A stretch of 64,000 bases of DNA. It comes from a virus. Its lineage: Duplodnaviria; Heunggongvirae; Uroviricota; Caudoviricetes. Within the stretch, counting starts at the first letter, position 1, and every line of letters starts with the position of its first letter. The position numbers were made by a program, and so were the translations under genes. The DNA is taken from positions 62,445-126,444 of IMG/VR virus record IMGVR_UViG_3300009702_000014, one strand, 5' to 3'. Below, in pieces: positions 605 to 31,274 of this stretch. A model generated the notes under the pieces. The model was given only the letters and a program-made list of their open reading frames with translations. It was not told the DNA's origin and ran no database searches.

Positions 605-689
605 TGGTGGGAGAGGTAGGATTCGAACCTACTAAGCCTAAGGCATCCGGGTTACAGCCGGACACAACTCGCCATCGTTGCCGCTCTCC
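605..689 (-). tRNA. tRNA-Tyr(GTA), type II with long variable arm, CCA encoded
   Basis: reverse complement gives acceptor GGGAGAG/CTCTCCC, anticodon stem TCCGG/CCGGA with loop CTGTAAC, T-arm GGTTCGAATCC, 3' ACCA. Confidence 0.6.
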
Positions 690-826
690 CATAAATTGAG
701 TATCCTTTTTCGTCGGGCGGCGATACTCGTTCCGCTCCCCGCAACCCGAACCTGTCCTCGGTCAAGCGTCTATCCGCTTTGTCTGCCGTTGCTATTCACG
801 GCTGTCAAACCTATGGTGGGGCTGTA

Positions 827-909
827 TGGTGGACGAAGAGGGACTTGAACCCACGGCCTACGCGCTACGCGCTGCCAGCGCGTTGCTCTTCCAACTGAGC
901 TATTCGCCC
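827..909 (-). tRNA. tRNA-Ala(GGC) carrying a 7-nt tandem duplication (CGCGTAG x2) after the anticodon stem; possibly non-functional
   Basis: acceptor GGGCGAA/TTCGTCC with G3:U70; D-arm GCTCAGTTGGAAGAGC; anticodon loop CTGGCAG; T-loop TTCAAGT; CCA encoded; removing one CGCGTAG copy leaves a canonical 76-nt tRNA. Confidence 0.5.
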
Positions 910-973
910 ATACACACACCATAGTATATCATGTAATGAGAAGCATGTGAATATTTAGCTTCCTCTTTCCCGA

Positions 974-1049
974 TGGTAGCGTAGCACGGATTCGAACCGA
1001 GATTACCAGCTTGAAGGGCTGGTGTCCTGTACCCTTAGACGACTACGCC
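974..1049 (-). tRNA. tRNA-Glu(TTC)
   Basis: reverse complement GGCGTAGTCGTCTAAGGGTACAGGACACCAGCCCTTCAAGCTGGTAATCTCGGTTCGAATCCGTGCTACGCTACCA; resembles bacterial tRNA-Glu as recalled; anticodon loop CCTTCAA. Confidence 0.65.
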
Positions 1050-1259
1050 TTAATTGTACTGCTTGTCGATTTGTTCCTCGGAAAGCACCATGTAGCGCCC
1101 TTCATGCTCTCCCTCTGTAATTCGGCACTTATGATAGGGCTTTCCAAAATGACGCGTTAGAACAATCGCTACTCCACGTGCTTCTTTCTCTGTGTAGAGC
1201 TTTTCATTGACTACTGACACGGTACGGTTCATTTTTTTCCTTCTCCAAGCGTGGCGCAA
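1050..1259 (-). CDS. hypothetical small protein
   Basis: 69-aa ORF between tRNA genes. Confidence 0.3.
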   Translation of the reverse strand: MRHAWRRKKMNRTVSVVNEKLYTEKEARGVAIVLTRHFGKPYHKCRITEGEHEGRYMVLSEEQIDKQYN

Positions 1260-1431
1260 TAAAGTGTTTGACTCGATAGTTTAGATTGTCGGCCAGAGCA
1301 ATAAGCTCTTGGTCTGTAAGAATAGTGAATGGAGCGCCCCAACCGTTTCTTTTGACTATACCATCAAAACGAATTACATGTTCATCAGGTTCCCGACTAG
1401 AAACTACTGTAACTTTTGGCCCCATGCTCAA
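1204..1431 (-). CDS. hypothetical small protein
   Basis: 75-aa ORF between tRNA genes. Confidence 0.3.
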   Translation of the reverse strand: MSMGPKVTVVSSREPDEHVIRFDGIVKRNGWGAPFTILTDQELIALADNLNYRVKHFIAPRLEKEKNEPYRVSSQ

Positions 1432-1447
1432 ACTCCTTACTTAAAAA

Positions 1448-1523
1448 TGGTGTACCAGAAGGGACTCCAACCCCTAACCCCCCGAATGCAAATCGGGCGC
1501 TCTCGCAGTTGAGCTACTGGCAC
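1448..1523 (-). tRNA. tRNA-Ala(TGC)
   Basis: acceptor GTGCCAG/CTGGTAC with G3:U70; anticodon stem CCCGA/TCGGG with loop TTTGCAT; T-loop TTGGAGT; CCA encoded. Confidence 0.65.
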
Positions 1524-1527
1524 GTGA

Positions 1528-1598
1528 TGGTGGAGGCCGAGGGAATCGAACCCTCCAAAGAATGTCTGCATAACATTCAAGCTATTCCTAAAGCCCCC
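1528..1598 (-). tRNA. atypical tRNA-like element (71 nt, reduced D-arm); isotype unresolved
   Basis: canonical T-arm GAGGGTTCGATTCCCTC and ACCA 3' end; acceptor GGGGGCT/GGCCTCC; anticodon region GAATGTTATGCAGACATTC folds ambiguously; D-arm only about 3 bp. Confidence 0.35.
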
Positions 1599-1672
1599 AC
1601 AGTTATAGGAAACAGGGTGTGCTAGCCTATGGTCTAACTTCCTATTTCCATCTGTCGCAGATAATGTCTGCG

Positions 1673-1758
1673 TGGCGGAAGGTGAGGGAATCGAACCCCC
1701 GAGGCTGTTACGCCCAACTGTTTTCAAGACAGGTTCCTCGACCAACCGGGCACCTTCC
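1673..1758 (-). tRNA. tRNA-Ser(TGA), type II
   Basis: acceptor GGAAGGT/ACCTTCC; anticodon loop CTTGAAA; long variable arm; T-arm GGGGGTTCGATTCCCTC; CCA encoded; 86 nt. Confidence 0.6.
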
Positions 1759-1761
1759 ATA

Positions 1762-1836
1762 TGGTCCTCCCGGTAGGAATCGAACCCACGCTGTTCCGAT
1801 TAAAAGTCGGTTGCCTAACCATTCGGCCACGGGAGG
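1762..1836 (-). tRNA. tRNA-Lys(TTT)
   Basis: acceptor CCTCCCG/CGGGAGG; anticodon region ACCGACTTTTAATCGGA resembles bacterial tRNA-Lys; T-loop TTCGATT; ACCA. Confidence 0.65.
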
Positions 1837-1968
1837 ATAAATTGTGTAGTTGGCACACGGTATTTGGACGGTTACTTAGCAGCAACGCCACACTATTATT
1901 TCCGTGCTATCCCCATTGGCCCAGGGTACCTTTCGGCCGCCAACCGTCAACAATATAACAGATACAAA

Positions 1969-1983
1969 TATGAGAAGGATTAG
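1969..1983 (-). promoter_or_regulatory. copy of recurrent minus-strand motif CTAATCCTTCTCATA (putative phage promoter), upstream of a tRNA sub-cluster
   Basis: plus strand reads TATGAGAAGGATTAG; same 15-mer family recurs at least 14 times in the window. Confidence 0.5.
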
Positions 1984-1987
1984 AACT

Positions 1988-2064
1988 TGGTGCTCCGGGA
2001 GGGATTTGAACCCGCATCTGGTCTGATTAAGAATCAGCCGCTTTGCCAATTAAGCTACCGAAGC
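1988..2064 (-). tRNA. tRNA-Lys(CTT) (tentative anticodon)
   Basis: acceptor GCTTCGG/CCGGAGC; D-arm GCTTAATTGGCAAAGC; anticodon loop TTCTTAA by position counting; T-loop TTCAAAT; CCA encoded. Confidence 0.5.
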
Positions 2065-2068
2065 ATAA

Positions 2069-2185
2069 GGCGGAGGGAAGGATTCGAACCTCTCACGACC
2101 GGAACCGTGCCACTTCCAACTGGCCCTCACGCATGGGAGAGTTTACCCCGACTTAAGCACCTTTGTCAACCCCTTTCAAGAAAGT
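2069..2185 (-). tRNA. tRNA-like element or elements with a T-arm signature; structure unresolved
   Basis: contains GGATTCGAACC (T-loop on minus strand) and a D-arm-like GCCAGTTGGAAGTGGC, but no convincing acceptor pairing could be found by hand over the 117-nt interval. Confidence 0.25.
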
Positions 2186-2260
2186 TGGCTCTAGGGGCAG
2201 GATTCGAACCTACAACTAACAGGTTAACAGCCTGTCGTGTTACCATTACACCACCCTAGA
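2186..2260 (-). tRNA. tRNA-Asn(GTT)
   Basis: acceptor TCTAGGG/CCCTAGA; anticodon stem ACAGG/CCTGT with loop CTGTTAA; T-arm GTAGGTTCGAATCCTGC; GCCA 3' end. Confidence 0.7.
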
Positions 2261-2269
2261 ATACATGTT

Positions 2270-2640
2270 TTAATGAAGCTGTTTATACTCCTTGCTCGGA
2301 ATTGTAGTTTGTCGTAAGTTATAAACACTATTCCAAGTAGCTAGGACTGCTAAGAGCAGAATAATAAGGGAAACAAAAGAAGTGCTTCCTTTCAGGAGAG
2401 GCAATAAATAGATTAGACCAATAAACGAATAAATACCTATATGAGCGACCTCCTTTGCTTTACGGCCCCATTTCACAAAAAAAGAAAGGGTATCAAAAAC
2501 TACGTTAAATAAGAAAAGGCCAATTATTACTATAAAATAGTGTTCCGCTATAAAGTCCGAGGAACCAACAAGCCAAAGGATTACCAAAGCTACGAGACTA
2601 AAATAAATAATATCGTTAAAGATACGTTTTACGTAAGGCA
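2270..2640 (-). CDS. small integral membrane protein
   Basis: ORF 2270..2698 is strongly hydrophobic with several predicted TM segments; start trimmed to internal Met (MPYVKR) because the upstream part overlaps tRNA-Asp. Confidence 0.4.
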
Positions 2641-2662
2641 TACATAATATCCTCTCAAATAT

Positions 2663-2740
2663 TGGCGGCCTAGACGGGATTCGAACCCGCAACCTCACCG
2701 GCTGACAACCGGGTGTTCAACACCGTAGAACTACTAAGCC
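2663..2740 (-). tRNA. tRNA-Asp(GTC)
   Basis: acceptor GGCTTAG/CTAGGCC; anticodon loop TTGTCAG; T-arm GCGGGTTCGAATCCCGT; GCCA 3' end. Confidence 0.65.
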
Positions 2741-2765
2741 ATACCTAAAGTATATGATAGCAGGA

Positions 2766-2780
2766 AATGAGAAATATTAG
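2766..2780 (-). promoter_or_regulatory. copy of recurrent motif (minus strand CTAATATTTCTCATT) upstream of tRNA-Asp
   Basis: plus strand reads AATGAGAAATATTAG. Confidence 0.45.
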
Positions 2781-2810
2781 ATTGTCAATGTACTTGTCCT
2801 AGAAGGACTT

Positions 2811-2884
2811 TGGCGCGGGAGGAGGGATTCGAACCCATTCACAGAGGAGTTTTGGGGACTCCCTGGCACAACCTACGCTCTCCC
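2811..2884 (-). tRNA. degenerate tRNA-like element (possible tRNA-Trp(CCA) remnant)
   Basis: T-loop TTCGAAT and GCGCCA 3' end; good anticodon-like hairpin GGAGT-CCCCAAA-ACTCC; acceptor and T-stems pair poorly and the D region is shortened. Confidence 0.3.
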
Positions 2885-3328
2885 ACATGTGCGGATGTGT
2901 TTTCTAATAGCATTATCCGAAACGCCTAACTCTCTACCCAAAGCAGAATACCCGATTTCTTCGGCTCGGGCTGTGAGGTATTCCACAGGAGGCCAGTCTA
3001 TCTTTTTACGGCGAAAATCGTACCAAGTTTTTATATAATTAGGTTTCACTCGGTAACGAGTGTCTAAGCATATATAAGCGCCGTCCATACGTTTCACAAG
3101 AGGATTTTTCTTGTTTCTATGGTACCGCGCATGGTGTCGCTGACTTAGAAAAACCATCAAATTACTTGGGACGTTGTGCGCTCGATTTTCGTCCATATGA
3201 TGCACAACTTCATAATTTTTTAATGGCCTCCCAAGCATCCTCTCAGCGACCAATACATGTTCCCATACACATCCGTTGGGGCGTGCTCTAGGGTGGGCGG
3301 GGCGATAAATTTCAACATAGTTATTCAT
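2873..3328 (-). CDS. HNH homing-type endonuclease
   Basis: HNH motif VVHHMDENRAHNVPSNLMVFLSQRHHARYH; start trimmed to internal Met (MNNYVEIY) because upstream ORF sequence overlaps tRNA-Gly; embedded in the tRNA array. Confidence 0.6.
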   Translation of the reverse strand: MNNYVEIYRPAHPRARPNGCVWEHVLVAERMLGRPLKNYEVVHHMDENRAHNVPSNLMVFLSQRHHARYHRNKKNPLVKRMDGAYICLDTRYRVKPNYIKTWYDFRRKKIDWPPVEYLTARAEEIGYSALGRELGVSDNAIRKHIRTCGRA

Positions 3329-3374
3329 TTTACTGCCCTTTCCGTGTGGAGCGGCATAGGAGAATCGACAAATT

Positions 3375-3450
3375 TGGAGCGGACGGTGAGATTCGAACTC
3401 ACGAAATATCGGTTTGGAGGACCGACGCCTTACCACTTGGCCACGTCCGC
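3375..3450 (-). tRNA. tRNA-Gly(TCC)
   Basis: acceptor GCGGACG/CGTCCGC; anticodon stem TCGGT/ACCGA with loop CCTCCAA; T-arm GGTGAGTTCGAATCTCACC; TCCA 3' end resembles bacterial tRNA-Gly(UCC). Confidence 0.7.
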
Positions 3451-3716
3451 ATAAATTTTACCGCAAGCCGGGGTGGAGGGCCGTATGCATCCGGTTATCC
3501 TCTCACGCAGGGAGCGGTAAGTCCCCTACGCACAGCAAAGCCCCGACCAGTAACTCCCCAGCATCGTAACACTGAGGGTGCCACAGAATAAATCTGTGGG
3601 GGAGAAAATACGGGCAGCTACTCAGGAAACCGACCTTTTGGGTCCGGGGGTGCTTTTTGCGTCACTCTGTCGCCGGGTTTGCCCAACCCTATTATCCTCT
3701 CGGCGTGACGGCGGTA

Positions 3717-3806
3717 TGGCGGTGGGAATAGGATTCGAACCTATGGACCTCTTTCGAAATCACGTACTTTCCAGGCACGCCCAATAAACCGCTCTGGCAT
3801 CCCACC
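3717..3806 (-). tRNA. tRNA-Ser(GGA), type II
   Basis: acceptor GGTGGGA/TCCCACC; anticodon stem CGTGC/GTACG with loop CTGGAAA; long variable arm; T-arm ATAGGTTCGAATCCTAT; GCCA; 90 nt. Confidence 0.6.
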
Positions 3807-3853
3807 ATGTTCAAACTTGCATTCATTACATTTGAACAGTATAATATACTTAT

Positions 3854-4399
3854 ATGAAAACTACATTAGAAAACGACATTCTTACTTTAAGAAAAGAAGG
3901 AAAAACTTATTCTCAAATTCAAAAAGAACTAGGCTGTTCCAGAGGCACTATTTCTTATTATGTTGGTAAAGGACAGAAAGATAAAACACGTCAACGAAAT
4001 AAAAAAGTTAGAGACGAAAATCCAGTTAGTCGAAAGGTAGCTGAATTTAAATCAAGAGGAAAAGCACGAAAGAATTTTGTTTCTAAAACAAGAGATTTCC
4101 AACGTCGTGACGGTTTATATCTAGCATCTACTCCTGAAACCGTTGATTTTACGTATCAAGACGTGCTAGATAAAATTGGCCCTAATCCTACATGTTATTT
4201 AACAGGACTGCCTATAGATTTATATGACCCGTCCTCTTACCATTTTGACCATATTATCCCTGCATCACAAGGTGGTAATAATTCTCTAGAAAACCTTGGA
4301 ATCGCTTTAAAATCCGCAAACAATGCAAAAGACTCATTACTCTTAGGAGAATTTTTAGACCTGTGTGAAGCAGTTTTGAAACACCACGGTAGAATATAA
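3854..4399 (+). CDS. HNH homing-type endonuclease with N-terminal HTH
   Basis: HNH motif HFDHIIPASQGGNNSLENLGIALKSANNAK; the only plus-strand gene inside the minus-strand tRNA array. Confidence 0.65.
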   Translation: MKTTLENDILTLRKEGKTYSQIQKELGCSRGTISYYVGKGQKDKTRQRNKKVRDENPVSRKVAEFKSRGKARKNFVSKTRDFQRRDGLYLASTPETVDFTYQDVLDKIGPNPTCYLTGLPIDLYDPSSYHFDHIIPASQGGNNSLENLGIALKSANNAKDSLLLGEFLDLCEAVLKHHGRI

Positions 4400-4401
4400 A
4401 T

Positions 4402-4488
4402 TGGCGGAAGGGGTGGGAATCGAACCCACAGGCCCATTGAGCCCCGAATTTAGCAAATTCGGCAGAGTAGCCAATCTCAATCCCTTCC
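4402..4488 (-). tRNA. tRNA-Ser(GCT), type II
   Basis: acceptor GGAAGGG/CCCTTCC; anticodon stem CGAAT/ATTCG with loop TTGCTAA; long variable arm; T-arm GTGGGTTCGATTCCCAC; GCCA. Confidence 0.65.
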
Positions 4489-12307: not shown

Positions 12308-12722
12308 AGCCCTTAGAACGCCGGGAAACTCTAACATTTCGTTTCATATATAAAAATTTGGAGGCGTCGGCATCGAAGCCGAGTCCAGAATAATGTCCAA
12401 ATAGCCTTCTACGTGTGTAGCACCTTACTCAAGTGCGGAGTCTTACGGGGTTTTGTCTGTTATACATTTGCAGTTATTGTGCGCTAACTGCGGGCGGGGG
12501 CTGCTTTACGCAGCGAGTGGCATACCGTAGCTACCATAGGTAGCAGGGATATAACCGTAATCATTAACGTTGTTAGTTAATTATTTGGGCTTGTTAAGGG
12601 GCCAGCCCACCCCTACACGCGGGTTATTCTTCTTTTGCCCTGTCGAAACCTTGTCGCCCCCATAATTCCTCGGGGTATCCAGGCTCATTGCTTCTTAATA
12701 ATACCACATAATCTACAAGGCG

Positions 12723-13226
12723 TCAAGATAACAAGCTATGTATCGTACCTCTGTTGTTGAAAAAATCTCGGAATGGAGGGAACATTTCTTCGGCATCCAA
12801 CTTCATAAATGCCTCTTCCGTCAGCCATTCCCAGCCCGCTGATTTTTCAGGCTCTATAGTTTGTGGCTCCGAATCTGCATCAGCTTCCACAAAATAGTAA
12901 AATCCAACCCAATGTTGCTTATCTTCATGGACGGGGTATTCATAAACGTACACAAGAGTAAAATCAGACTCGGGAAAATCTAGGCCCGTTTCTTCCAACA
13001 ATTCTCTCTTGGCCGCACTTTGTGTAGTTTCTCCAAACTCCATTGCGCCGCCGGGAAGTTCCCATAAGCCCTTTCCCCCGTAGTCTCCTTTATATAAGCG
13101 CCTGCCTAGCAAAAGCGCATAATCCTCTGCAACTCCCTTAGCTACAATAATGGATACAGATATTCGTGGAAATTCAGGCATTAGGGGGTTTTCCCATCCC
13201 GGATTCAATAGCATCCGACTGACCAA
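12723..13226 (-). CDS. NUDIX hydrolase
   Basis: Nudix box GGAMEFGETTQSAAKRELLEETG. Confidence 0.8.
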   Translation of the reverse strand: MVSRMLLNPGWENPLMPEFPRISVSIIVAKGVAEDYALLLGRRLYKGDYGGKGLWELPGGAMEFGETTQSAAKRELLEETGLDFPESDFTLVYVYEYPVHEDKQHWVGFYYFVEADADSEPQTIEPEKSAGWEWLTEEAFMKLDAEEMFPPFRDFFNNRGTIHSLLS

Positions 13227-16048: not shown

Positions 16049-16768
16049 TTAGGTCCCCTTCAAAACTAAGACCGGCTTTAAACGTTTTTCGACAATTGCT
16101 ACTTCGGCATCAACCAATGCTCCAATTACTTCATCTACGTCCTTATAGGCTCCGTGAGATTCGTCCAAGGGCACGTTCTGGAAGTTACCCATAACGTTTC
16201 TTGTTTTAAACTCAGCGTTAATAGTGCCCTGGTCGAGCATTTCCTTTGCCTTACCACGGCTCAGCACGCGGCCAGCACCGTGAGACACAGACTCCCCGAG
16301 TTTCGGAGCCATTTTACCAGGACGGAGCACGTAGCTTCCAGTTGCCATGCTACCAGGAACTAGTAACGGAATACCATCGTTATCGTAGGCTGGTGTAGCC
16401 CCCTTACGGCCTACGAATTTTTCGTTGCGCTGCTCAATGAAGTTGTGCGGAATGTGCCCGATAAAATTAAATTGAGCCTCTGGAAGCACTTCCTGGATTG
16501 CCTCTGCGACCGAGTGCTGCACAATATAGTGGTTATGAGTCGTCCATTCAAGCATAGCCTGTTGGAAGGCGAAGTAGAAACGCCCCAAACTACTATCCGC
16601 AGGAACGTAGAGCAACTTATTCTTAGGTGCTGCTCCCCACTTCGTCAATTCCGCTTCAATAGCTTCGTCAAAGAATTTTGCACCCTTTGCTCCAATTCCA
16701 CGGCTACCGAAATGCGACATAACGAAAACATTTCCATCTTCATCTTCCTGTACTTCTACAAAGTGATT
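16049..16768 (-). CDS. rtcB: RtcB RNA ligase, exon 2 (C-terminal part)
   Basis: in-frame extension above the annotated Met reads NHFVEVQEDEDGNVFVMSHFGSRGIG; contains RtcB GSRG, PGSMATGSYV and SHGAGR motifs; upstream stop at 16784. Confidence 0.7.
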   Translation of the reverse strand, partial: NHFVEVQEDEDGNVFVMSHFGSRGIGAKGAKFFDEAIEAELTKWGAAPKNKLLYVPADSSLGRFYFAFQQAMLEWTTHNHYIVQHSVAEAIQEVLPEAQFNFIGHIPHNFIEQRNEKFVGRKGATPAYDNDGIPLLVPGSMATGSYVLRPGKMAPKLGESVSHGAGRVLSRGKAKEMLDQGTINAEFKTRNVMGNFQNVPLDESHGAYKDVDEVIGALVDAEVAIVEKRLKPVLVLKGT

Positions 16769-17836
16769 CAGTGTTGTTACTACTTACGCGAATTGGATAA
16801 AACCTACCGACCAAGGTTTGTTTTCTCCATATCTACATTGTATACTACATTTTGGTGAGATTGATGAGACTAGACTTTTCCAAACCAGAATTTTCATATA
16901 TGCTCGGATTACTACACGCAGACGGACATTATGACAAACAACATACCAATGGCAAAATAACACTTGAAGCCAGTATGAAAGATGTGGATATAGCCCATAA
17001 ATTATCAAAAGTGCTTCCTGGAAAATCTACAATCACGTATAGGAACCGGCATACTAATTACTCAAAAGACTCTCAAACCTTTGTGTGGAGCATATATGAC
17101 AAAGACATTCGTACTCAGTTCCCTATGCCTTCTGGCAAAAAATCCCACCTAATTGCCCCTCCAGATATCCCTTACTCCAAAGTAGACTATTGGAGAGGTA
17201 TCATAGATGGTGATGGTTCTCTTGGATTTACCAGTCAAGGACTTCCTTTTATTAGTTTAGTAACTCAAAGTGAGGCTCTAAAGGAAACCTACATAGATTT
17301 TCTTGAACCAATTCTAGGATATCGCAAGCGGCTATCACGTAATACACGGGATAATGTGTATAATATTGTAATATTCAATGAGGCGGCTCAGTCACTAGCA
17401 AATAAACTTTACTATCTTGACTGTCTTGCTATTGCTAGAAAGTACGAAGTGGCGAATCAGCTTAAACAATGGGAGCGTTCTATCCCGCAGCGGCCCCGCT
17501 CCCTACCGTGGGAGCAATGGGAAGAACAATATTTACAGACACACACCCTTGATGAAGCTATCAAATACTTATCTCATAGAACGAAAAAGGCTATTAAACT
17601 AAAACATTATCGCATAAGCGGGTAGGTCATTTCTGCCTACCTCAACATGTTTCCATGCTGCTCAGACTATCCCTTCATCCCGTAGGATGCGCCTATTATA
17701 GTCGTTGCACGTTCCCTCGCGGGCTTCGCTCAGGGTTGCCGTATAGCACCTAAAGGTCGGTGGCGCTACTTAGGGTTCCCCTGAATTTAAGGCGTTTTTA
17801 TCTTCCCTGTTACCAGGAAAGGGAGGCAGTCAGTTT
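16769..17836 (-). mobile_element. intervening sequence in rtcB (probable group I intron, about 1068 nt) carrying a LAGLIDADG endonuclease ORF in antisense orientation
   Basis: splits the invariant RtcB motif GGG|NHF; exon 1 ends with U (codon GGT), the insert ends with G (..CTG) before AAT CAC TTT; GC-rich structured flanks at 17626-17836. Confidence 0.55.
16852..17625 (+). CDS. LAGLIDADG homing endonuclease (two motifs)
   Basis: YMLGLLHADGH and WRGIIDGDGSLGF; plus strand, i.e. antisense to rtcB. Confidence 0.75.
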   Translation: MVRLMRLDFSKPEFSYMLGLLHADGHYDKQHTNGKITLEASMKDVDIAHKLSKVLPGKSTITYRNRHTNYSKDSQTFVWSIYDKDIRTQFPMPSGKKSHLIAPPDIPYSKVDYWRGIIDGDGSLGFTSQGLPFISLVTQSEALKETYIDFLEPILGYRKRLSRNTRDNVYNIVIFNEAAQSLANKLYYLDCLAIARKYEVANQLKQWERSIPQRPRSLPWEQWEEQYLQTHTLDEAIKYLSHRTKKAIKLKHYRISG

Positions 17837-18430
17837 ACCTCCACCAATGCTACCAACTTGTCCAAGCTGCGCCTGAGTCATGAGCTTGCTAAGCAAGTCC
17901 CACAAACTCTTCCATTCGTGAGTACGAGCGTGTTTATACAGCACGTACTCGCTGTTTTTGACCCAGGTCTTTTCGTGGCGAAAATGCCCCTGCACAATCC
18001 ACTTAAATTCGTCTATCGTTATGGGACGGCTCTGCTTTGGGACACGGGCGTGTCCTGCACCAACGCTAATACGACGGCCCATTTCTCCAAGAATGCGGCT
18101 ACGAAGTCCCTTGTCGGCCTGAGAAAGTCCTTTAATCCCATTAACTCGCATCAAAGACACAGAGCAGGCGGGGTCAGGCCCTACAACATCAGGGTAAAGG
18201 TGCGTACTAGACTCGACTACGCTCCCAATCGGGAAACCATAGCCCGTGTGCATGTCAGGCGTAACAGTGAAGCGTTCCACCCCCGGCAACTCCATAGAAT
18301 TGCGAAGTTGCTCCAATGCAGAGGATTCGACTGCCCCCATGAGGGCATCAGAGAGAAGCATGGTTGCCCATACGTTTCCGTGGCGCATTTTATAAATATT
18401 GCCAGCTTTAAACGGCTGAAATTCATTCAT
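17837..18430 (-). CDS. rtcB: RtcB RNA ligase, exon 1 (N-terminal part)
   Basis: PDMHTGYGFPIGSV and GSIGGG (start of GGGNHF motif); the ORF reads through into the insert (KLTASLSW*). Confidence 0.7.
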
Positions 18431-20416: not shown

Positions 20417-20972
20417 TCACAAAGCGTTCCAGCATTTCCTGGTCGCCCAACTCGTATACAGTTAGAAGGCTACTGAGAGAGTTAACTGTGAACTCCTTAC
20501 TACTAATTGTCTTGCGGAGAATATGACGAATCCTGTCCGTTAGGAATTGGATAGCCCTCTTATGGCTGACCTCTAGCTGTTTTACAGGAATATCTAGAAA
20601 TTCTACATCAAGACTGACGGAGGGAGCATGAATTCTCAAATCTCTAAATTTAATTCTTAGGCAAAGCCTTTCCTCCATGTCTGTAACAATTGAGAATTGT
20701 CCATCTAAGTAGTGCCATTCTCCAGGACCAGTGACAAAAGCCACATCAATCGCTTTAGGCCACACGGAGTCTTCAAACCAGCAACCCATATCACCCTGAA
20801 AATTTTCGATACGAAACTCAGCGTCGTAAATCTCTTGTAAAAGTTCCTCAGTAGGCTTCTCAATAGGGAATGACATAATTATCCTTTCAAAAATAGAGTT
20901 GAGTTGAGTTGGGTCGTAAGCCGGGTTCTGTTTCAATCTAGCATCTATCTTGTCTTGGGTTATTATTCCCAA
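20406..20972 (-). CDS. hypothetical protein
   Basis: 188-aa ORF. Confidence 0.45.
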   Translation of the reverse strand: MGIITQDKIDARLKQNPAYDPTQLNSIFERIIMSFPIEKPTEELLQEIYDAEFRIENFQGDMGCWFEDSVWPKAIDVAFVTGPGEWHYLDGQFSIVTDMEERLCLRIKFRDLRIHAPSVSLDVEFLDIPVKQLEVSHKRAIQFLTDRIRHILRKTISSKEFTVNSLSSLLTVYELGDQEMLERFVIGA

Positions 20973-21275
20973 GCTCTTTGCGGCAATTCTGCCTTGCTGC
21001 CACGTAAGGATTGCCTAGCCATAGGTTATTAGTCCTATGCTGGTGAGTTTTTACCTCACCGCTTTCACCTACCGCTGGTACGCGGTCTCTGTTCGCTGTT
21101 GCTCTTGCTCGCACGTCACCGTGGTCGGGCGTTACCCGATACGCTTTTTATGGCAGCCCGGACTTTCCTCCCCGTAGGGCGCTAGAATGCCCAACTCAAC
21201 TTCGCTCAGTCTACTCTACCATACTATGAGAATAGTGAAAAGTCCCCGACGTATGCCGAGGACTTTATAGGTTCT

Positions 21276-22151: not shown

Positions 22152-22190
22152 AAGTTCAATCCTTTCGTTTAACATTGTTCCATAAAAGTT

Positions 22191-22205
22191 TATGAGAAGT
22201 ATTAG
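22191..22205 (-). promoter_or_regulatory. copy of recurrent motif (minus strand CTAATACTTCTCATA), 40 nt upstream of collagen-like gene start
   Basis: plus strand reads TATGAGAAGTATTAG. Confidence 0.5.
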
Positions 22206-22681
22206 TTTATAAATAAAAGCAATCCCAACACAAGCAAGTGAAAGGCTTGGTCTGTTAGGATAGTGGCGGGAGCCCAACTGCGAGTAACCCAGCGGCGGCT
22301 ATCAATAATAAGGTGAGTCCCAAATATCACAAGCAATCCCCACCAGGAAAAAGCACCTAACAAAACCGCCGGAATAAAGAATGCGGTATAAATTAGTACA
22401 TGCTGAAAAAGTGCTGGGATACTAAATCGTATCTTATTCATATCCAAAGGGTGCTTTTTGCGCCTCAAAAGATACGACATGACTTCAAACGCATGACTCT
22501 TATATTTCGCCATCCTATCCGTCTGGTAGGTGTAGTCTCCCAATATGTGTAATGCAAGTAGAATTAAAATCATATTACTCCCAAGGGTACTGATGCGACG
22601 GCTTCCAACGTGGGTTACGTCCGTAATCATCCACGAACACTTCATCGAACACCGTTTGGTGAGGATAATTATACCGTTCAA
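22202..22681 (-). CDS. membrane protein
   Basis: hydrophobic segments FFIPAVLLGAFSWWGLLVIFGTHLII and LLVLGLLLF. Confidence 0.4.
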   Translation of the reverse strand: MNGIIILTKRCSMKCSWMITDVTHVGSRRISTLGSNMILILLALHILGDYTYQTDRMAKYKSHAFEVMSYLLRRKKHPLDMNKIRFSIPALFQHVLIYTAFFIPAVLLGAFSWWGLLVIFGTHLIIDSRRWVTRSWAPATILTDQAFHLLVLGLLLFIN

Positions 22682-23828: not shown

Positions 23829-24265
23829 TTAGGAGATTTTCTTGCCCATCATGACGCCAGAAAGAAACTCTAGGGCCTTCCTGTACTTGTTTTCTAGCCT
23901 TTCCCTGGTAGCGTTGCCGAGATAAGAAAGTCTATTGGGGTCGGAGTTGTCCATCAGGTCTGCCCATTTGACCATAAGGCCAATGTCGTTTTGGCTCGCC
24001 CGGTAAACGAATTCGTCATAAGGCTCTCCGTCGTGACGAGTGACGGATTCAACAGCCTCTACGATATACTCAGGAAAGCCTGCCTCTAGCAAATGATAGA
24101 AGTGTCCTCCAGAATGTCATGGAGAGCAGCTACTACCATATCGTCCTCTCTGCGGAGACGACCGACTACCCTAAAAATATGAGAAATATAGGGCGCACCC
24201 AGTTTGTCGAACTGACCGGCGTGCGCTTCGACTGCAAGTGCGAGTGCCTTCTTGAGAAGTAGCAT
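23829..24265 (-). pseudogene. SpoT/MESH1-like HD-domain (p)ppGpp-hydrolase-type gene interrupted by a -1 frameshift near 24092-24096
   Basis: N-terminal frame ALAVEAHAGQFDKLGAPYISHIFRVV...VVAALHDILEDTSIIC*; C-terminal frame LEAGFPEYIVEAVESVTRHDGE...VKWADLMDNSD; together they span a complete HD hydrolase domain. Confidence 0.55.
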
Positions 24266-24371: not shown

Positions 24372-25481
24372 TCATGAGATATCGTCCTTCCACCTTAGTC
24401 CGACACCAACAGGGAAGCGAGGCACACCATCGTCTGTCTTTTCAAAAAACCTAACTGTCAGCTTTTCTCCGATATGCGAATCAGCTTCCTGGTACCACGC
24501 TTGACGTTCTTCCATCGTTCCCTTCGGGACCACGTTAAACTTAATACCCTCCGGGGTTTCACACTCATAAATGATACAACCTACAAACTTGCCGACACCC
24601 TCTGTGTAACCTGTAACAGAATACTCAGCATCCAGAAAATCCTTCTTTTTAAGAAGAGCCGCTGAACGAGCACCTGTACGGTATCCCAAGTCTTTGTCTT
24701 TAAGGCCACGGGTTAGGCGTATAATAGAACCTTCGTAGCCCTGCTGGATGAAGGATTCGTGTGCCTTTTGCACTTCTTCCTCGTTGAAGCAAGTCTGTTC
24801 CCCAACAAGTTTAATCTTATCAGCTTCAGGAAAATCTAGGAAAGTGATATCATGACGATTTTTCCAATTATCATCCTTTGTTAAAGCACAATAGCTATCA
24901 TAGCAATGGAATTCGACGTTTTCGGATTCTCCCGGACGATACTTCTTCACAAGCTTCAAGAGGGACTGGAATCCCATACCATGAATGTACAGCTCGCCGT
25001 CAAGAACCATCGGGGGAAGGTTCATGTCCTTAACCTGTTGACGAATATGCTCACAATTCTCGATAGGCTTACCCGAGCGGCTGACCATTTCGACATCATC
25101 ACCATCTGCACGAATCAGGCAGCGAACACCATCCAGCTTAGGCTGAACATAGACCGGAAACTGCTCCTTCTTGAGCTTCGTCACGGACTTGGCCAGCATC
25201 GGTTGGAGCTTATCTACAATATTTGACGTGGCCCGAGACTCACTATACTTACGGTCCTTCTGATAGACCCACATAGCCTCAGCTTCAAGTAGAGCCTGTT
25301 CCTCAGCGGTAGTCGAATTCGACTTGCCTACATTCTTTGGTGTAGCCTGTTTGGACGCCTCTTGCTTTGAATCTCCTTCACCACCATAAAGGGTGAAAAT
25401 GGTATCTCCTTCGACCCAAATATCCCACTCGTAGGTCTTGCCCGAATTATTCGTGTAATATAGCCTCGGCCAAGTTTTCAT
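24372..25481 (-). CDS. ATP-dependent DNA ligase
   Basis: motif I QPKLDGVRCLIR (KxDG) and downstream nucleotidyltransferase motifs. Confidence 0.8.
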   Translation of the reverse strand: MKTWPRLYYTNNSGKTYEWDIWVEGDTIFTLYGGEGDSKQEASKQATPKNVGKSNSTTAEEQALLEAEAMWVYQKDRKYSESRATSNIVDKLQPMLAKSVTKLKKEQFPVYVQPKLDGVRCLIRADGDDVEMVSRSGKPIENCEHIRQQVKDMNLPPMVLDGELYIHGMGFQSLLKLVKKYRPGESENVEFHCYDSYCALTKDDNWKNRHDITFLDFPEADKIKLVGEQTCFNEEEVQKAHESFIQQGYEGSIIRLTRGLKDKDLGYRTGARSAALLKKKDFLDAEYSVTGYTEGVGKFVGCIIYECETPEGIKFNVVPKGTMEERQAWYQEADSHIGEKLTVRFFEKTDDGVPRFPVGVGLRWKDDIS

Positions 25482-25535: not shown

Positions 25536-26228
25536 CTACTTCGCAGTACTATGAGAGGTATTAGTAGATTCCTCTGGAAATTCCAAGTCTACATAGTGAC
25601 CAGTCTGCATCACATGTAGACAGATGAATTGCGTGCCATCTACATTTACATTGAGACGTTTATGGTGGTGCCCAAAGAGCCACAAACTAGGCTTTTTGGG
25701 GCCAACAAGAACATTCTTACGTAGATGTTCCAGGAATTCAGCCGTCCTATTCGGAAAAGCGTGCATGGGGTGTAGATGCTTATAAAGCTCATAAGGGGCT
25801 TCGTGCGTTATAACGGTATTAATGGCTCCTTCATAACGACGCACCTTTTCCTCAATCATATCCATCTCACCCATTGAAAGCTGCTCTTGGTCCCACCAGT
25901 TCATCCCCGGTGTGCGCTGTTGCCAGTCAATCGACCACGCGCCTCCAATGAATAGGGTATCATGGTGAATCATTCCGTCCGGGATATAAAAGAACCCTTT
26001 ATGGTCCCAATCAAAGTAAATTCTGATGTTAGGGTTGTCATGATTGCCTCGGATAAACCTTATCCTAATTTTCGGAGTTTCAATTGGCTGGTCGAAGGTA
26101 CCGGGGAAGCCATACCCGAAGTCACCTGCAATCCAAACCTCATCAATGCCCAAACCGTCCAAACTTTTAATAGTTTTGTCGAGAAAAGAGAAGTCTCCAT
26201 GTAAATCTCCGTAAACTCTGACTTTCAT
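25536..26228 (-). CDS. calcineurin-like metallophosphoesterase
   Basis: GDLHGDF, AGDFGYG and GNHDN metal-binding motifs. Confidence 0.75.
   Translation of the reverse strand: MKVRVYGDLHGDFSFLDKTIKSLDGLGIDEVWIAGDFGYGFPGTFDQPIETPKIRIRFIRGNHDNPNIRIYFDWDHKGFFYIPDGMIHHDTLFIGGAWSIDWQQRTPGMNWWDQEQLSMGEMDMIEEKVRRYEGAINTVITHEAPYELYKHLHPMHAFPNRTAEFLEHLRKNVLVGPKKPSLWLFGHHHKRLNVNVDGTQFICLHVMQTGHYVDLEFPEESTNTSHSTAK
25550..25564 (-). promoter_or_regulatory. copy of recurrent motif (minus strand CTAATACCTCTCATA), overlapping the last codons of the phosphoesterase gene and upstream of the ligase gene
   Basis: plus strand reads TATGAGAGGTATTAG. Confidence 0.4.
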
Positions 26229-27359: not shown

Positions 27360-27371
27360 CTCTCTATCGTT

Positions 27372-27626: not shown

Positions 27627-27662
27627 TCCTGATTATACCACCCTATACACTTATACACAAGA

Positions 27663-27905: not shown

Positions 27906-27945
27906 AGTTTAACTTCCTTCCTGTTACTGTTTTAAAGTAAGCAAG

Positions 27946-28272
27946 ATGAGAAGTATGAAATCTCACGTTTCTCACTCATATATATGTAGAATGGAGACTA
28001 TGGACACGCTTACTGACGAACAAGTTGAGTTTATGGATAAAATTCTTACCTTTCTTCTCTATTTGGAAACCATCACGTTAAGTCAAAACGAAATGATGTC
28101 TCCACAAGCGACGAAAGGCGACCTGATATCTAGTTGGGTGATATACAATAACAACATCACTACCTCAATGGCCAAGGAGATTCTAGACTCTGAGTATATG
28201 AAAGAGTATATCTCCGTCACCAACGAGGCTGAGAGAAAAAAGATTGAGGAAAAGTACCAAGAGGTTAACTAA
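27946..28272 (+). CDS. hypothetical protein (first gene of the plus-strand block; true start may be internal Met METMD)
   Basis: 108-aa ORF. Confidence 0.4.
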   Translation: MRSMKSHVSHSYICRMETMDTLTDEQVEFMDKILTFLLYLETITLSQNEMMSPQATKGDLISSWVIYNNNITTSMAKEILDSEYMKEYISVTNEAERKKIEEKYQEVN

Positions 28273-28817
28273 TGGAATTTATTGTGATGAACAGACAAGA
28301 AGCAGCGAATAGCACACGTCCTGGTGTGTATGGGGGTATCGTCTCCATCAATGACCCCGGCATGAAGATGCCGTGGGAAGTTAAGAATTTCCATAAAGGG
28401 CTCCGGCTTTCATTGTATTTCCATGACATTCGCAAGCCGCTTCCTCGCAATGCTACCCCATTTAAAATAGGGGCGTATCAGCCACCAACAAAGGAGGATG
28501 CGGAAAAGATTATCAATTTCGCTCGCCTTCTCCCCGAAGACGCAAAGGTCATGACACATTGTTACGCGGGCATCAGTCGCTCCAGTGCAGCCGCTATCAT
28601 CATCATTGCTACGCGGTATAACAAAGAAGAGGCGACTCAAAAAATCAAACAACTGGGAGAGGATTACCCTTGGATTTACCCTAACCAACTCCTAATCAAC
28701 TATGCTGCTGAAATTCTTGAATTGCCGTGGCTAGAAGGAACAGTGTCTTGGGCCATCAGTCATGGTATGTACGAGGATGGTTGGGAACCCTTGACAGAAA
28801 GGAAAGTAAATGGGTAA
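28272..28817 (+). CDS. cysteine-based (dual-specificity/PTP-like) phosphatase
   Basis: CX5R P-loop VMTHCYAGISRSS. Confidence 0.6.
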   Translation: MEFIVMNRQEAANSTRPGVYGGIVSINDPGMKMPWEVKNFHKGLRLSLYFHDIRKPLPRNATPFKIGAYQPPTKEDAEKIINFARLLPEDAKVMTHCYAGISRSSAAAIIIIATRYNKEEATQKIKQLGEDYPWIYPNQLLINYAAEILELPWLEGTVSWAISHGMYEDGWEPLTERKVNG

Positions 28818-29187
28818 AAAGAGTAGCGCGAAGAAAAAACTACGCCCATTCAAACAGGCTAATGTGACTTTCCATAAGTGGACAGAGGGGGATAAGGAAT
28901 ACGAGATTCAAGAGATTCACCCCTCAGGCACAGACCCTTCTACCGAAGAAATGGTAAAAGGAATGTCACTAATAGCCAAGTCAGGACCAGAGACTTTCGA
29001 TGGTCTTATGCAAATGCTTATCAAGGCCCTTCCTAAGCGTAGATTTTACGTCATAACCCCAAGAGAATTCGTCCTGGGCGAAACCCCAATCCTTGTGGCA
29101 ACATACCCTGCACTTACAGAAGGACAAACCCGGCGTATAAAAGATGGCATAGAGAGCATTAGGAAGCAGAAGGGGTTGACAACATAA
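28810..29187 (+). CDS. hypothetical protein
   Basis: 125-aa ORF. Confidence 0.4.
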   Translation: MGKKSSAKKKLRPFKQANVTFHKWTEGDKEYEIQEIHPSGTDPSTEEMVKGMSLIAKSGPETFDGLMQMLIKALPKRRFYVITPREFVLGETPILVATYPALTEGQTRRIKDGIESIRKQKGLTT

Positions 29188-29204
29188 CTCTGGCGTGCTA
29201 TACT
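29176..29204 (+). promoter_or_regulatory. near-consensus sigma70-type promoter TTGACA-N17-TATACT
   Basis: TTGACA at 29176-29181, 17-nt spacer, TATACT at 29199-29204. Confidence 0.5.
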
Positions 29205-29210
29205 ATTGAT

Positions 29211-29538
29211 GTTGAAGGAAATAGCAACCAGGAAGTCGCATACTTCGATTACAAATGATACCGGTTATCCGCTGAGTGTAGGATGCGAAAAACCGCGACT
29301 TCAAAAACTTCTAGTACTTTAACCGCATTAAAGCACTCCTCTCTTTGGAGAGTACCACAATAAGTTTTTATAGGGGAGCCATATACTCCCCGCTCACAAA
29401 TAAATAATCTTTAGCAGCCAGGTTTTCGGTTACTTCGATACTAACTCGTCATATAGCACCGAACTCCACTTTTCTCTAAGGATATTTCTTTACGGATTTA
29501 CCCCTGGATGCTACACCATGTATCCAGGGTTTTCTTTT
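29211..29538 (+). ncRNA. candidate ~330-nt structured non-coding transcript directly upstream of the Ro60 orthologue (Y-RNA-like candidate)
   Basis: delimited by the promoter above and an intrinsic terminator; no ORF of 60 aa or more; 8-bp inverted repeat GAAGTCGC..GCGACTTC and several hairpins (GGGGAG..CTCCCC; CTCTC..GAGAG). Confidence 0.3.
29502..29538 (+). terminator. rho-independent terminator
   Basis: CCCTGGAT-12 nt-ATCCAGGG followed by TTTTCTTTTG. Confidence 0.6.
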
Positions 29539-29717
29539 GCTTCAATCGGCTATGATTGAACTTAAAGAAGAATACAGAAACCTAATCGAACTAAAAAATC
29601 TAGTAGGGAAGCTTTTCATCATTTTTATGGATGCTCCCTTATGCGAGCAGGAGGACAGAGTGACTCACCTTCTTATCTGCCTGTTCGAAAGCTATCATAA
29701 TCTAAAAGGAGATTAAT

Positions 29718-31274
29718 ATGAACAAACTAAACACTACCAGACAACCAAGAACCCGTTATGTTAACACCTACGAGGGCGGTCGCGGCCTCAAGGTCGGCGC
29801 TGAGGAAGAATTGGCGTTTCTAACCTTCGCTAGCAATTTCCATGACAAGTTTTATGAAACCGGTAAGGCTACTCTAAAGCGTATGGAGGCTCTTGTTAAC
29901 CAGTCGCGCCCGGAGTTCGTCCAACAGCTAGCCCGTGTTGCTCGTCAAGAGTTCAACATGCGTGCTACCCCAGCAGCTTTGACGGCTTTCTATACCTTGA
30001 AGCATGGACAGCCAGATAATGATAAGCTTATCACTGACGCTTTCTTCCGTGGCGACGAAATCGGTGACTACCTAGCCGTAGTCGAATCTGCCTCCCGTAA
30101 GGGTAAGGTTATTCCTTCTGCCGTTCGTTTTGCTCGTCGCGTTTTGCAGGAACAGCTAAATGAGCGTAAGGCTCTGCGTTATGCTCGTTCTGGACGTGCC
30201 TGGAGCCTAGCTAAGATTATTCGCCTAAGCCACGCCCGCATGGGTGCTACCCCAGCCCAGGAAGCTCTCTTTAATTTCGTGCTCGCATGGAATGGTGAAG
30301 GTAGCTTGACAAAGGCGTGGGAAACGCTGCCCTCCGCACAGCGCAAGTTGCTTCCGACTATCAAGCAGGCTGTCGAAGGTGGAGACGCCGACGGCAGCAT
30401 CAGTTGGGAACGTACTATTTCTGCTGCTGGTGCAGAGAAGGACTGGACTAGGGTTGTAGATAAGATGGGCTACATGGCCCTTCTACGTAACCTTCGTAAC
30501 TTCCTCCAGGACGTTCCGGCTAAGAATACGGAATTCTGGAACACGGTTACTCGTAGGCTAGCTGACGAGGAAGAAGTCTTGGCTTCTAAGCAATTCCCAT
30601 TCCGTTTCTACTCTGCATACAAGGCTATTAAGGATATGCAGCACGCTAAGACTCACGCGGTCATTGATGCGCTGTCTACTGCCTTGGACTACTCGGCACG
30701 CAATCTCCCGGAATTCCCGGAAAAGACCCTTATCGTTATCGACGCTTCCGGTTCTATGAGTAGTGGTTTGCTTTCCGACAAGTCTGAAATGTCTTATCGT
30801 GAAGTCGGGGAAGTTTTGGGTGCAGCTCTATTCACTACGACAGGTGCAGATGTTGTACACTTCGGTACGACTGCGTACAAGCACAACGGCCTCGACGTAA
30901 ACAGTGGTGTTCTAAACACCCTTAATGAGTTTGCTACGGTCAACCACAGCACGGTAAGGGGCATCTATATGGGTCGGGGTGGCCGCAAGATGGTCGGCCA
31001 CAGCACAGAGCTTGGTTCCATTCAAAGCGTTGTAAATGTTAACGACTATGATGCTATCATCGTTTTCTCTGACATGCAGCTAGCTGATAGTGCCAGCAGC
31101 ACCCTTGGTAACTACAAGGGTAAGCTCTACACTGTCAATATGGCGGGCTATGAGGCCCAGCTAGACCTACGTAGCAACGATGTTGTTGCTGTCGGGGGTT
31201 GGAGCGAAGCTGTTCTCCGGCTTATGTCGCTTATCACACGTAACCAGCTTATCAAGTACATCCTGGACTACTAG
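29718..31274 (+). CDS. rsr: Ro60-like RNA-binding protein (TROVE domain plus C-terminal vWA domain)
   Basis: vWA MIDAS TLIVIDASGSMSS; 518 aa with N-terminal region resembling TROVE as recalled; strong RBS AAAGGAGA. Confidence 0.6.
   Translation: MNKLNTTRQPRTRYVNTYEGGRGLKVGAEEELAFLTFASNFHDKFYETGKATLKRMEALVNQSRPEFVQQLARVARQEFNMRATPAALTAFYTLKHGQPDNDKLITDAFFRGDEIGDYLAVVESASRKGKVIPSAVRFARRVLQEQLNERKALRYARSGRAWSLAKIIRLSHARMGATPAQEALFNFVLAWNGEGSLTKAWETLPSAQRKLLPTIKQAVEGGDADGSISWERTISAAGAEKDWTRVVDKMGYMALLRNLRNFLQDVPAKNTEFWNTVTRRLADEEEVLASKQFPFRFYSAYKAIKDMQHAKTHAVIDALSTALDYSARNLPEFPEKTLIVIDASGSMSSGLLSDKSEMSYREVGEVLGAALFTTTGADVVHFGTTAYKHNGLDVNSGVLNTLNEFATVNHSTVRGIYMGRGGRKMVGHSTELGSIQSVVNVNDYDAIIVFSDMQLADSASSTLGNYKGKLYTVNMAGYEAQLDLRSNDVVAVGGWSEAVLRLMSLITRNQLIKYILDY

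Follow-up and report, generated by a model that had tools for sequence, protein, structure and literature searches.

A class-A RNase P RNA gene in a putative island for RNA supply, maturation, rescue and repair of large uncultured tailed phages

Jumbo phages have been described to encode tRNAs, RtcB, Rnl1/2 RNA ligases, TROVE proteins with a tRNA-like partner, phosphoesterases, and Macro, NADAR and Nudix proteins (Iyer et al. 2021, PMC7824862), a gene combination for which a role in countering host attack on the translation apparatus was proposed; Burroughs and Aravind 2016, as cited in that survey, is among the sources on such RNA-repair systems. Here, we analysed a 64,000-nucleotide stretch of viral DNA (hereafter the window; IMG/VR record IMGVR_UViG_3300009702_000014, positions 62,445 to 126,444), which carries the same combination of genes and, in contrast to the jumbo-phage survey (PMC7824862), adds an RNase P RNA gene, a transfer-messenger RNA (tmRNA) gene and an rtcB gene interrupted by an intron. 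Among cellular systems, the closest are the Salmonella rsr-yrlBA-rtcBA RNA-repair operon and bacterial Ro60 with its YrlA Y RNAs (PMC7790460, PMC4201824); Y RNAs adjoin Ro60 genes both in bacteria and in mycobacteriophages (PMC4201824). The window resembles the Salmonella operon in the linkage of Ro60 with RtcB and in the presence of two tandem structured candidate small RNA genes beside Ro60, comparable to YrlA/YrlB, and differs from it in that RtcA and RtcR were not found in the window, the small RNAs lack an Rfam match and the setting is a phage.

Ro60-encoding mycobacteriophages (Pedulla et al. 2003 as cited in PMC4201824) are large, too, and have YrlA-like RNAs next to their Ro60 homologue; RtcB is common in mycobacteriophage records (205 of 661). 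However, their proteins are at most ~30% identical to those of the window. With T4, whose Pnkp and Rnl1 act against PrrC, the window would share the logic of phage repair of host-cleaved tRNA alongside phage tRNAs. In contrast to the T4 enzymes, RtcB joins a 3'-phosphate or 2',3'-cyclic-phosphate directly to a 5'-OH, and the window encodes neither Pnkp nor Rnl. Some Ro60 mycobacteriophages reportedly also carry tRNA arrays and tmRNA, and we know of no RNase P RNA in mycobacteriophages. Taken by itself, the RNA-repair theme adds one more ordinary example to those already on record. What appears to be new is a conserved RNase P RNA gene in a phage, and this is the part worth following up. RNase P is universal and essential, and the tRNA precursors of T4 are among its classic substrates; to our knowledge, viruses have so far been regarded only as users of host RNase P.

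The RNase P RNA of the window (all coordinates in Table 1) matches the class-A model over its full length (model positions 1–367). Compared with the Rfam consensus, P1–P5, P7–P15, P18, J5/15, J18/2 and the full specificity domain (P7–P14) are kept, CR-I (GAGGAAAGUCCGGGC) and CR-V (ACAGAACCCGGCUUA) are intact, and the bulged U and the AA of P4 as well as J5/15 and J18/2 agree with the consensus. Bacterial class-A RNAs (RF00010) thus have P1–P5, P7–P15, P18, CR-I, CR-V and the P4 pseudoknot in common with the phage RNAs, which differ in being phage-encoded, 298–324 nt long, shortened in P3 and P12 (both short in the window) and devoid of the L15 GGU. Altogether, 40 model positions, comprising P16/P17 and the L15 loop with GGU, are gone and a plain P15 hairpin with a loop of 4–5 nt stands in their place (GGCA-GAAU-UGCC in the window, GGGA-GUAAU-UCCC in the RNAs of clade B). 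The GGU motif of L15 pairs with the 3' RCCA of tRNA. Some bacterial and organellar class-A RNAs likewise lack P16/P17/L15, for example those of Chlamydia and of plastids or cyanelles, in which P15–P17 is a simple hairpin, so that class-A membership is compatible with this loss. A U-run follows P1, and the next gene begins 25 nt further on.

Several marker genes in the window (rIIA, rIIB, a tail fibre protein, a clamp loader and ribonucleotide reductase) indicate that it is part of a large tailed phage. Its GC content is 42–49% across most of its length. A megablast search with window positions 8000–31500 against 50,697 GenBank phage records returned zero matches and hence no close sequenced relative, and window proteins such as rIIA and RtcB are at most ~36% identical to those of isolates. 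Relatives came from metagenomes: they were collected through RtcB homologues and then the contigs encoding these (RtcB 46–83% identical to that of the window; loci are given as L numbers), and include contigs of 194 kb and 209 kb. The closest cellular RtcB homologues in a scan of a genome collection (56% identity) came from metagenome-assembled genomes of Trueperaceae; as these have a GC content of 58–70% and no synteny with the window, no host was assigned.

RNase P RNA genes were found in six related contigs (the window, L021, L001, L023, L028 and L158), in five of them 1–3 kb downstream of rtcB and in L021 ~3 kb upstream of it, at the start of the contig. For the analysis of covariation, five of these RNAs were aligned and given the Rfam structure, to which P4, a pseudoknot outside the nested structure of the Rfam model, was added by hand. 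In this alignment, 90% of cells were paired and compensatory changes occurred at 30 of 89 pairs, as compared to 1–5 in controls in which the partners were slid by 1–3 columns. For P4, three of the eight pairs were compensatory and none was broken, with all cells paired in the five phage RNAs (for example AAG[U]CCGGG/CCCGGCUU in the window and ACG[U]CGGGA/UCCCGCGU in L001). Clade B carries compensated substitutions in the CR-I/CR-V strands of P4 together with a 28–29 nt insertion after P5, and L158 contributes further compensatory changes in P12 and P13. This covariation shows that selection maintains the ribozyme fold of the RNA in the phage genomes, and argues against a recent scrap of host DNA.

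A scan of IMG/VR with the exact 16-nt CR-I motif returned 44 stretches, 12 of which lie on contigs of 100–497 kb. Eleven of these twelve hold a class-A RNase P RNA (108–308 bits); ten are full length (208–308 bits), and the eleventh (L041) ends at the 3' edge of its stretch. Most of these genes have tRNA genes on both sides, in dense arrays. The RNAs are 45–91% identical to one another and their loci span 46–69% GC, and the genes beside the arrays again include TROVE (L073), Metallophos together with an intein-containing gene (L047) and NADAR homologues (L061, L070). Exact 17-mers of the phage RNase P RNA retrieved only the L001 contig from IMG/VR, the 18 other matches being due to chance. In GenBank phage records, blastn with the window RNA gave no match, which is uninformative for so short a conserved core, and blastn in general yielded no credible RNase P RNA match. 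Two of the huge-contig RNAs did match MW495066.1, 'Microcystis phage MaAM05' (L076, 109323–121473); this candidate was rejected as a phage gene, being surrounded by the bacterial-type genes fliM, fabI, engB, mtgA and glyS.

A phage-encoded RNase P RNA did not turn up in our searches of open-access papers. RNase P and tmRNA each have zero occurrences in the jumbo-phage survey (PMC7824862), and RNase P is unmentioned in the 'huge phages' paper. The nearest precedent comes from Mycobacterium austroafricanum and M. sp. YC-RL4, whose genomes hold extra, divergent copies of rnpB that are thought to be horizontally acquired. The same genomes contain extra tmRNA genes of phage origin, and an endonuclease gene lies between the two extra rnpB copies (PMC9569102). 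Like the phage genes, these are divergent additional RNase P RNA genes on apparently mobile DNA. In contrast, they are chromosomal and not assigned to a phage, and neither covariation nor linkage to RtcB/Ro60 was reported for them (PMC9569102). We tentatively propose, at somewhat less than even confidence, that a working RNase P ribozyme is encoded by this phage clade and, independently, by several phage lineages of 100–500 kb in which the gene lies within tRNA arrays. Host RnpA and phage RNA would then form a phage-controlled holoenzyme that matures tRNA, tmRNA and Y-like precursors.

Potential substrates of such an enzyme are abundant at one end of the window. The first-pass annotation had counted about 15 tRNA genes; the array was confirmed and the number was not, since ARAGORN identified 12 tRNA genes (Tyr-GUA, Ala-GGC, Glu-UUC, Ala-UGC, Ser-UGA, Lys-UUU, Lys-CUU, Asn-GUU, Asp-GUC, Gly-UCC, Ser-GGA and Ser-GCU) plus one tRNA-Ala-like gene devoid of a D arm. 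The 3' CCA is part of each of the 13 genes, most of which are preceded by a U at -1. Two gene pairs are separated by 3–4 nt only, so that these tRNAs require excision from multimeric precursors. The tRNA-Ala-like gene has an acceptor stem with G3.U70, a T arm, an anticodon-like UGC hairpin and the encoded CCA, and is 4 nt away from the canonical tRNA-Ala(UGC); ARAGORN called it as tRNA-Ala(tgc) at a relaxed threshold only, and its minimum-free-energy fold was also examined. It could be a tRNA mimic or decoy. Lys-UUU, Tyr, Asn, Asp and Glu-UUC tRNAs are known targets of anticodon nucleases, and their presence in the array fits, and does not prove, the earlier suggestion that the locus answers to anticodon nucleases.

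Two further observations concern the array. In most of the tRNA genes, a conserved ...(t)tAT precedes +1, often behind a TACAAT- or TAAAAT-like hexamer, which could stem from closely spaced promoters or from a preference of RNase P for certain leaders. Moreover, an HTH-HNH endonuclease gene (3854–4399, plus strand) lies within the array on the opposite strand and is probably a free-standing homing endonuclease.

The tmRNA of the window has the acceptor stem GGGGGCG/CGCCUCC with the alanine-identity pair G3.U70, its tag frame ends in ...GMPLAA-stop, and a promoter-like site is located nearby (12726–12698). The tmRNAs of the relatives scored higher (107–149 bits; an example of their tags is DDNVEMLPGFMLGASYNPQALAA).

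The presence of RtcB had been noted before; we find in addition that the gene is split into two Pfam RtcB matches, and a group I intron explains this split. Exon 1 ends with ...GSIGGG and exon 2 begins with NHFVEVQ..., such that the intron is inserted exactly within the conserved active-site motif GGG|NHF. Pairing of exon GGAGGU with intron GCCUCC forms P1 with a U.G at the 5' splice site, and the 3' end of the intron (...CACUG) has a terminal G. The spliced protein (437 aa) is collinear with the intact RtcB of L001 and 61–83% identical over its full length to intact homologues. It contains DPAC, GGG|NHF, SHFGSRG, HIPHNF and SHGAGR (the last three in exon 2), which we take to be the metal- and GMP-binding motifs, including the His that carries covalent GMP. 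The same intron, at the same site and with the same antisense endonuclease gene, is found in L023, a member of the other RNase P RNA subclade, and is not present in L001, L021, L028 and L158, as expected of a mobile intron. Judged from this gene structure, intact RtcB would be made only after the group I intron has spliced out.

Likewise, the Ro60-like protein noted earlier was recovered as a TROVE-domain protein, which is 49% identical to its L001 homologue; TROVE homologues occur in 90 GenBank phage records, many with a Ro-like annotation. Directly upstream of TROVE, four phages (the window, L001, L023 and L158) share an arrangement of an extended -10 box (TGCTATACT in the window), two tandem small RNA units and a stem-loop with a U-run resembling a terminator. 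The units begin with AGCAGCCAG...UACUUC (in the window AGCA(A/G)CCAG...UACUUC, at 29223 and 29413), and the region has a folding z-score of -3.8. In unit A, the 8-bp helix H1 (GAAGUCGC/GCGACUUC in the window, GGGGUUGC/GCAACCCC in L001 and L023, GGGAUUGC/GCAAUCCC in L158) covaries at four of its eight positions. In unit B, five of the 17 consensus pairs of the terminal stem are compensatory. Unit A gave a poor consensus fold, since its copy in the window is difficult to align, and when the entire region was folded from single sequences, the window and L001 gave different structures. A tRNA-like domain could not be made out in the small RNAs. The structure that appears to be supported comprises helix H1 and the unit B stem only. 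Since they match no Rfam family, we refer to them as candidate Y-like RNAs only.

The RNA genes and their neighbours recur together. Relatives share, in varying order, a module of TROVE, an HD-domain gene, Metallophos, RtcB, RNase P RNA, a PF09414 Rnl-type RNA ligase, an SNF2 helicase, an RNase_T exonuclease, Band_7, tmRNA and rIIA/rIIB. The linkage TROVE-Metallophos-RtcB-RNase P RNA-(Rnl)-SNF2-RNase_T-tmRNA-rIIA/B is recurrent in relatives whose proteins are 40–83% identical, and gene order differs between them; given this recurrence, the linkage of the module exceeds chance. The theme of RNA and tRNA maintenance proposed by the first-pass annotation thus held, and was strengthened by the RNase P RNA, tmRNA and candidate Y-like RNAs that it had missed. 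Overall, we favour, with some confidence, the view that window positions 605–34000 constitute a conserved island for RNA supply, maturation, rescue and repair in a large uncultured tailed phage. From its gene content, we infer that the island would keep the translation apparatus working for the phage.

In such an island, the tRNA, tmRNA and small RNA genes would be transcribed as precursors with short spacers, from which the RNase P RNA of the phage, most likely in concert with host RnpA, would remove the 5' leaders. An RNase P RNA of its own could sustain tRNA maturation under high demand or when the host enzyme is limiting. The DEDD exonucleases might trim 3' trailers to the encoded CCA, and the mature phage tRNAs would supplement or replace those of the host. 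Stalled ribosomes would be freed by tmRNA, RtcB would rejoin 2',3'-cyclic-phosphate and 5'-OH ends, such as those of anticodon loops cut by host ribotoxins, and Ro60 and the small RNAs may deal with misfolded or damaged RNAs. Defence against anticodon nucleases is one plausible selective pressure on the island.

Several observations weigh against this picture. DNA-related genes (SNF2 helicase, GmrSD_N, DNA ligase, NUDIX) lie scattered among the RNA genes. The Rnl gene of the window has been lost and replaced by two small ORFs (open reading frames), and the HD-domain gene is split, indicating that some parts of the island are dispensable. No polynucleotide kinase, Rnl or CCA-adding enzyme was found by Pfam among all sizeable ORFs of the window, an additional set of 50 included. 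The RNase P RNA lacks the CCA-pairing L15 GGU, although all phage tRNA genes encode CCA. RnpA (PF00825) was absent among the Pfam matches of the scanned ORFs of the window, which covers 64 kb of a genome of perhaps ~200 kb; a phmmer search (with RnpA sequences as queries, E < 1) and a search of the window for the RNR motif found none either. As an RnpA gene is missing from the window, the RNase P RNA probably pairs with host RnpA. SmpB was likewise not found by Pfam in the scanned ORFs of the window. The tmRNA of the window is atypical, with a 6-nt T loop (UUCGAU), no encoded CCA and a discriminator A followed by AAUUUUU, and ARAGORN did not call it even at a relaxed threshold; its CCA could be added after transcription. 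The small RNAs matched none of all 4227 Rfam families at E <= 1. Finally, no RNase P RNA was detected in the stretches fetched for the distant relatives L026, L029 and L030 (E <= 0.01) or L157 and L159 (E <= 0.001), nor, at the gathering threshold only, in the stretch fetched for L031. These distant relatives still carry rtcB and tmRNA.

The first-pass annotation had instead read the locus as a T4-like heal-and-seal system of counter-defence, in which the phosphatase and phosphoesterase clean RNA ends, and tRNAs cleaved by nucleases of the PrrC/RloC/VapC type are resealed by RtcB and the ATP-dependent ligase, a reading that we consider unlikely. RtcB is indeed present with its active-site motifs, and the tRNA set holds the known nuclease targets named above. 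In relatives, Metallophos and Rnl form a cassette, and their reading frames overlap in L001, L026 and L028. This overlap is the best evidence here for a phosphoesterase that acts on RNA ends. In L021, the closest relative, an Rnl gene lies between rtcB and the SNF2 helicase (gene order was also read in L023, L028 and L026). The calcineurin-like phosphoesterase described earlier was confirmed by Pfam; its five metal-binding motifs (GDxHG, GDxG, GNHD, H and GHxH) are invariant across seven homologues, and its profile matched the RNA debranching enzyme Dbr1 weakly (5e-4) and lambda phosphatase at 0.05 in the PDB. The case for a putative activity on RNA 2',3'-cyclic-phosphate or 3'-phosphate ends is circumstantial. 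In L157, a P-loop AAA_28 gene (906–1427) between Metallophos and rtcB is a candidate polynucleotide kinase, which is lacking in the window. A heal-and-seal role has also been put forward for jumbo phages (PMC7824862).

Several points, however, speak against the T4-like picture in the window. The adjacent ATP-dependent ligase, previously taken as an RNA-sealing enzyme, is a DNA ligase by Pfam and PDB: its RNA_ligase match (1.6e-3) is below threshold, as opposed to 2.8e-18 for DNA_ligase_A_M, and its PDB matches are all DNA ligases, best 6imj of African swine fever virus (ASFV; 6e-26) together with the Chlorella virus ligase. We rejected it as an RNA ligase, which would place this predicted DNA ligase outside the RNA toolkit. 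Rnl is reduced to a remnant of 20 residues, and a kinase was not found in the window. The CX5R phosphatase retained its HCYAGISRS motif with a weak family match, DSPc scoring below threshold (E = 2e-4; 21.7 bits, cut-off 33.5); in the PDB, only ~40 residues around the P-loop resemble PTP-like phytases and dual-specificity phosphatases. With no homologue in the L001 locus, it is not conserved in the module, and a role as RNA-end phosphatase was rejected for want of a link to RNA beyond the fold family. Furthermore, 2',3'-cyclic-phosphate ends need no healing for RtcB, so that phosphatases are not required partners, and a heal-and-seal system leaves RNase P RNA and tmRNA unexplained. The DHH-DHHA1 and Rv2179c-like exonucleases further downstream were both confirmed by Pfam, and an RNase_T exonuclease as in the window is found in the same module of L023, L157 and L159.

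Less probable still is that the RNase P RNA has no part in tRNA processing and acts as a decoy that titrates host RnpA or another factor, or as a specialised cutter of phage mRNAs or other non-tRNA targets. Such functions would suit the loss of the CCA-binding L15/P16–P17 module in a phage whose tRNAs carry CCA, the lack of RnpA nearby and the base changes of clade B in the otherwise near-universal CR-I. However, the changes in CR-I and CR-V are compensatory and preserve P4, the P4 bulged U and AA, J5/15 and J18/2 fit the consensus, and the specificity domain P7–P14 is complete. In the other huge viral contigs, moreover, the gene lies between tRNA genes, as a role in tRNA processing predicts. 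An ordinary mosaic of accessory genes, with the RNA genes together by chance or through shared expression timing, is the least likely account: it would accommodate the interspersed unrelated genes (rIIA/B, SNF2, GmrSD_N, a collagen-like protein, DNA ligase and many ORFans), the rearranged gene order and the parts lost or broken in individual genomes, but not the recurrence of the same set across relatives with RtcB 47–83% identical to that of the window, its overlapping Metallophos and Rnl frames or the renewed juxtaposition of RNase P RNA, tRNA arrays and TROVE/Metallophos/NADAR in unrelated huge viral contigs.

Further features were noted in and around the island. The HD-domain gene of the window (23829–24265, minus strand) consists of two overlapping frames of 59 and 87 aa, and is intact in L001 and L023 (168–173 aa); the split could be due to a frameshift, a pseudogene or a sequencing error. 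Homologues of the collagen-repeat protein are located within the same module of L001 and L028. Downstream of TROVE, the plus strand encodes a SLOG(YpsA)-NADAR fusion (33722–34651), a Macro-domain protein (36213–36794) and PhoH (38096–38761). The ADP-ribose-processing domains among these are conserved in relatives and are treated as counter-defence genes in jumbo phages, too. A 1039-aa protein (41497–44616, minus strand) contains at least one intein (Intein_splicing, Hint, LAGLIDADG_3) in a host protein with weak matches to helicase and terminase-like PHROGs; intein-bearing genes are likewise found in L030 and L047.

Table 1. Coordinates of the features of the window and of RNase P RNA genes on other viral contigs.
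Feature	Position	Strand	Evidence and remarks
tRNA array, 12 genes	605..4488	-	ARAGORN; Rfam tRNA matches
tRNA-Ala(UGC)-like gene, 71 nt	1528..1598	-	Rfam tmRNA-model match, 31.6 bits, tRNA-like domain only
tmRNA	12358..12661	-	Rfam RF00023, 90.8 bits (cut-off 47)
NUDIX hydrolase	12723..13226	-	Pfam NUDIX, E = 6e-20; neighbour gene, no putative role assigned
Rnl-type RNA ligase (PF09414) remnant, last 20 residues	15411..15470	-	tblastn with L021 ligase, 75% over 20 aa, E = 3e-4
rtcB exon 2	16049..16768	-	Pfam RtcB positions 184-426, E = 5e-45
Group I intron, 1068 nt	16769..17836	-	Rfam RF00028, 68.4 bits (cut-off 50), at 17643-17846
LAGLIDADG homing-endonuclease gene in intron	16852..17625	+ (antisense to rtcB)	Pfam LAGLIDADG_3, E = 2.8e-8
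rtcB exon 1	17837..18430	-	Pfam RtcB (PF01139) positions 1-153
Class-A RNase P RNA, 298 nt	20901..21198	-	Rfam RF00010, 173.1 bits (cut-off 100)
Collagen-repeat protein	21276-22277	-	Pfam Collagen, E = 1e-22; immediately upstream of RNase P RNA
ATP-dependent DNA ligase	24372..25481	-	Pfam DNA_ligase_A_M (2.8e-18) and DNA_ligase_OB_2
Calcineurin-type metallophosphoesterase	25536..26228	-	Pfam Metallophos
Cys-based HCX5R phosphatase (HCYAGISRS)	28272..28817	+	Sub-threshold DSPc and Tc-R-P matches
Candidate Y-like small RNA genes, two tandem units	29196..29545	+	Conserved upstream of TROVE
Ro60-like (TROVE) protein	29718..31274	+	Pfam TROVE PF05731, E = 2.6e-18
RNase_T-family (DEDD) 3'-5' exonuclease	33186..33725	+	Pfam RNase_T, E = 1.5e-12
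DHH-DHHA1 phosphoesterase	55465..56283	-	Pfam DHH 2.8e-7, DHHA1 1.5e-6
Rv2179c-like 3'-5' exoribonuclease	57809..58423	-	Pfam, E = 1.9e-35
RNase P RNA on IMG/VR putative phage contigs, 100-497 kb	L034, L039, L041, L044, L047, L053, L061, L063, L070, L072, L073

If the proposal of a working phage ribozyme is true, this would be the first virus-encoded RNase P, and translation support of the phage would be independent of the supply, stability and inactivation of host RNase P RNA. The RNAs would also supply naturally minimised class-A ribozymes (298–324 nt) with compensated changes in the most conserved helix, of use for structure-function work. They raise the question of why a phage should bring its own 5'-end maturation, be it for the substrate load of the tRNA array, host shut-off or a defence that targets RNase P. 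The island as a whole would represent a compact natural system that joins tRNA supply, maturation, ribosome rescue, RNA ligation and Ro60 with small RNAs, and it is unusual in containing a repair enzyme, RtcB, whose synthesis would hinge on RNA self-splicing. A phage rnpB would extend the translation parts carried by viruses beyond tRNAs, tmRNA, aminoacyl-tRNA synthetases and ribosomal proteins.

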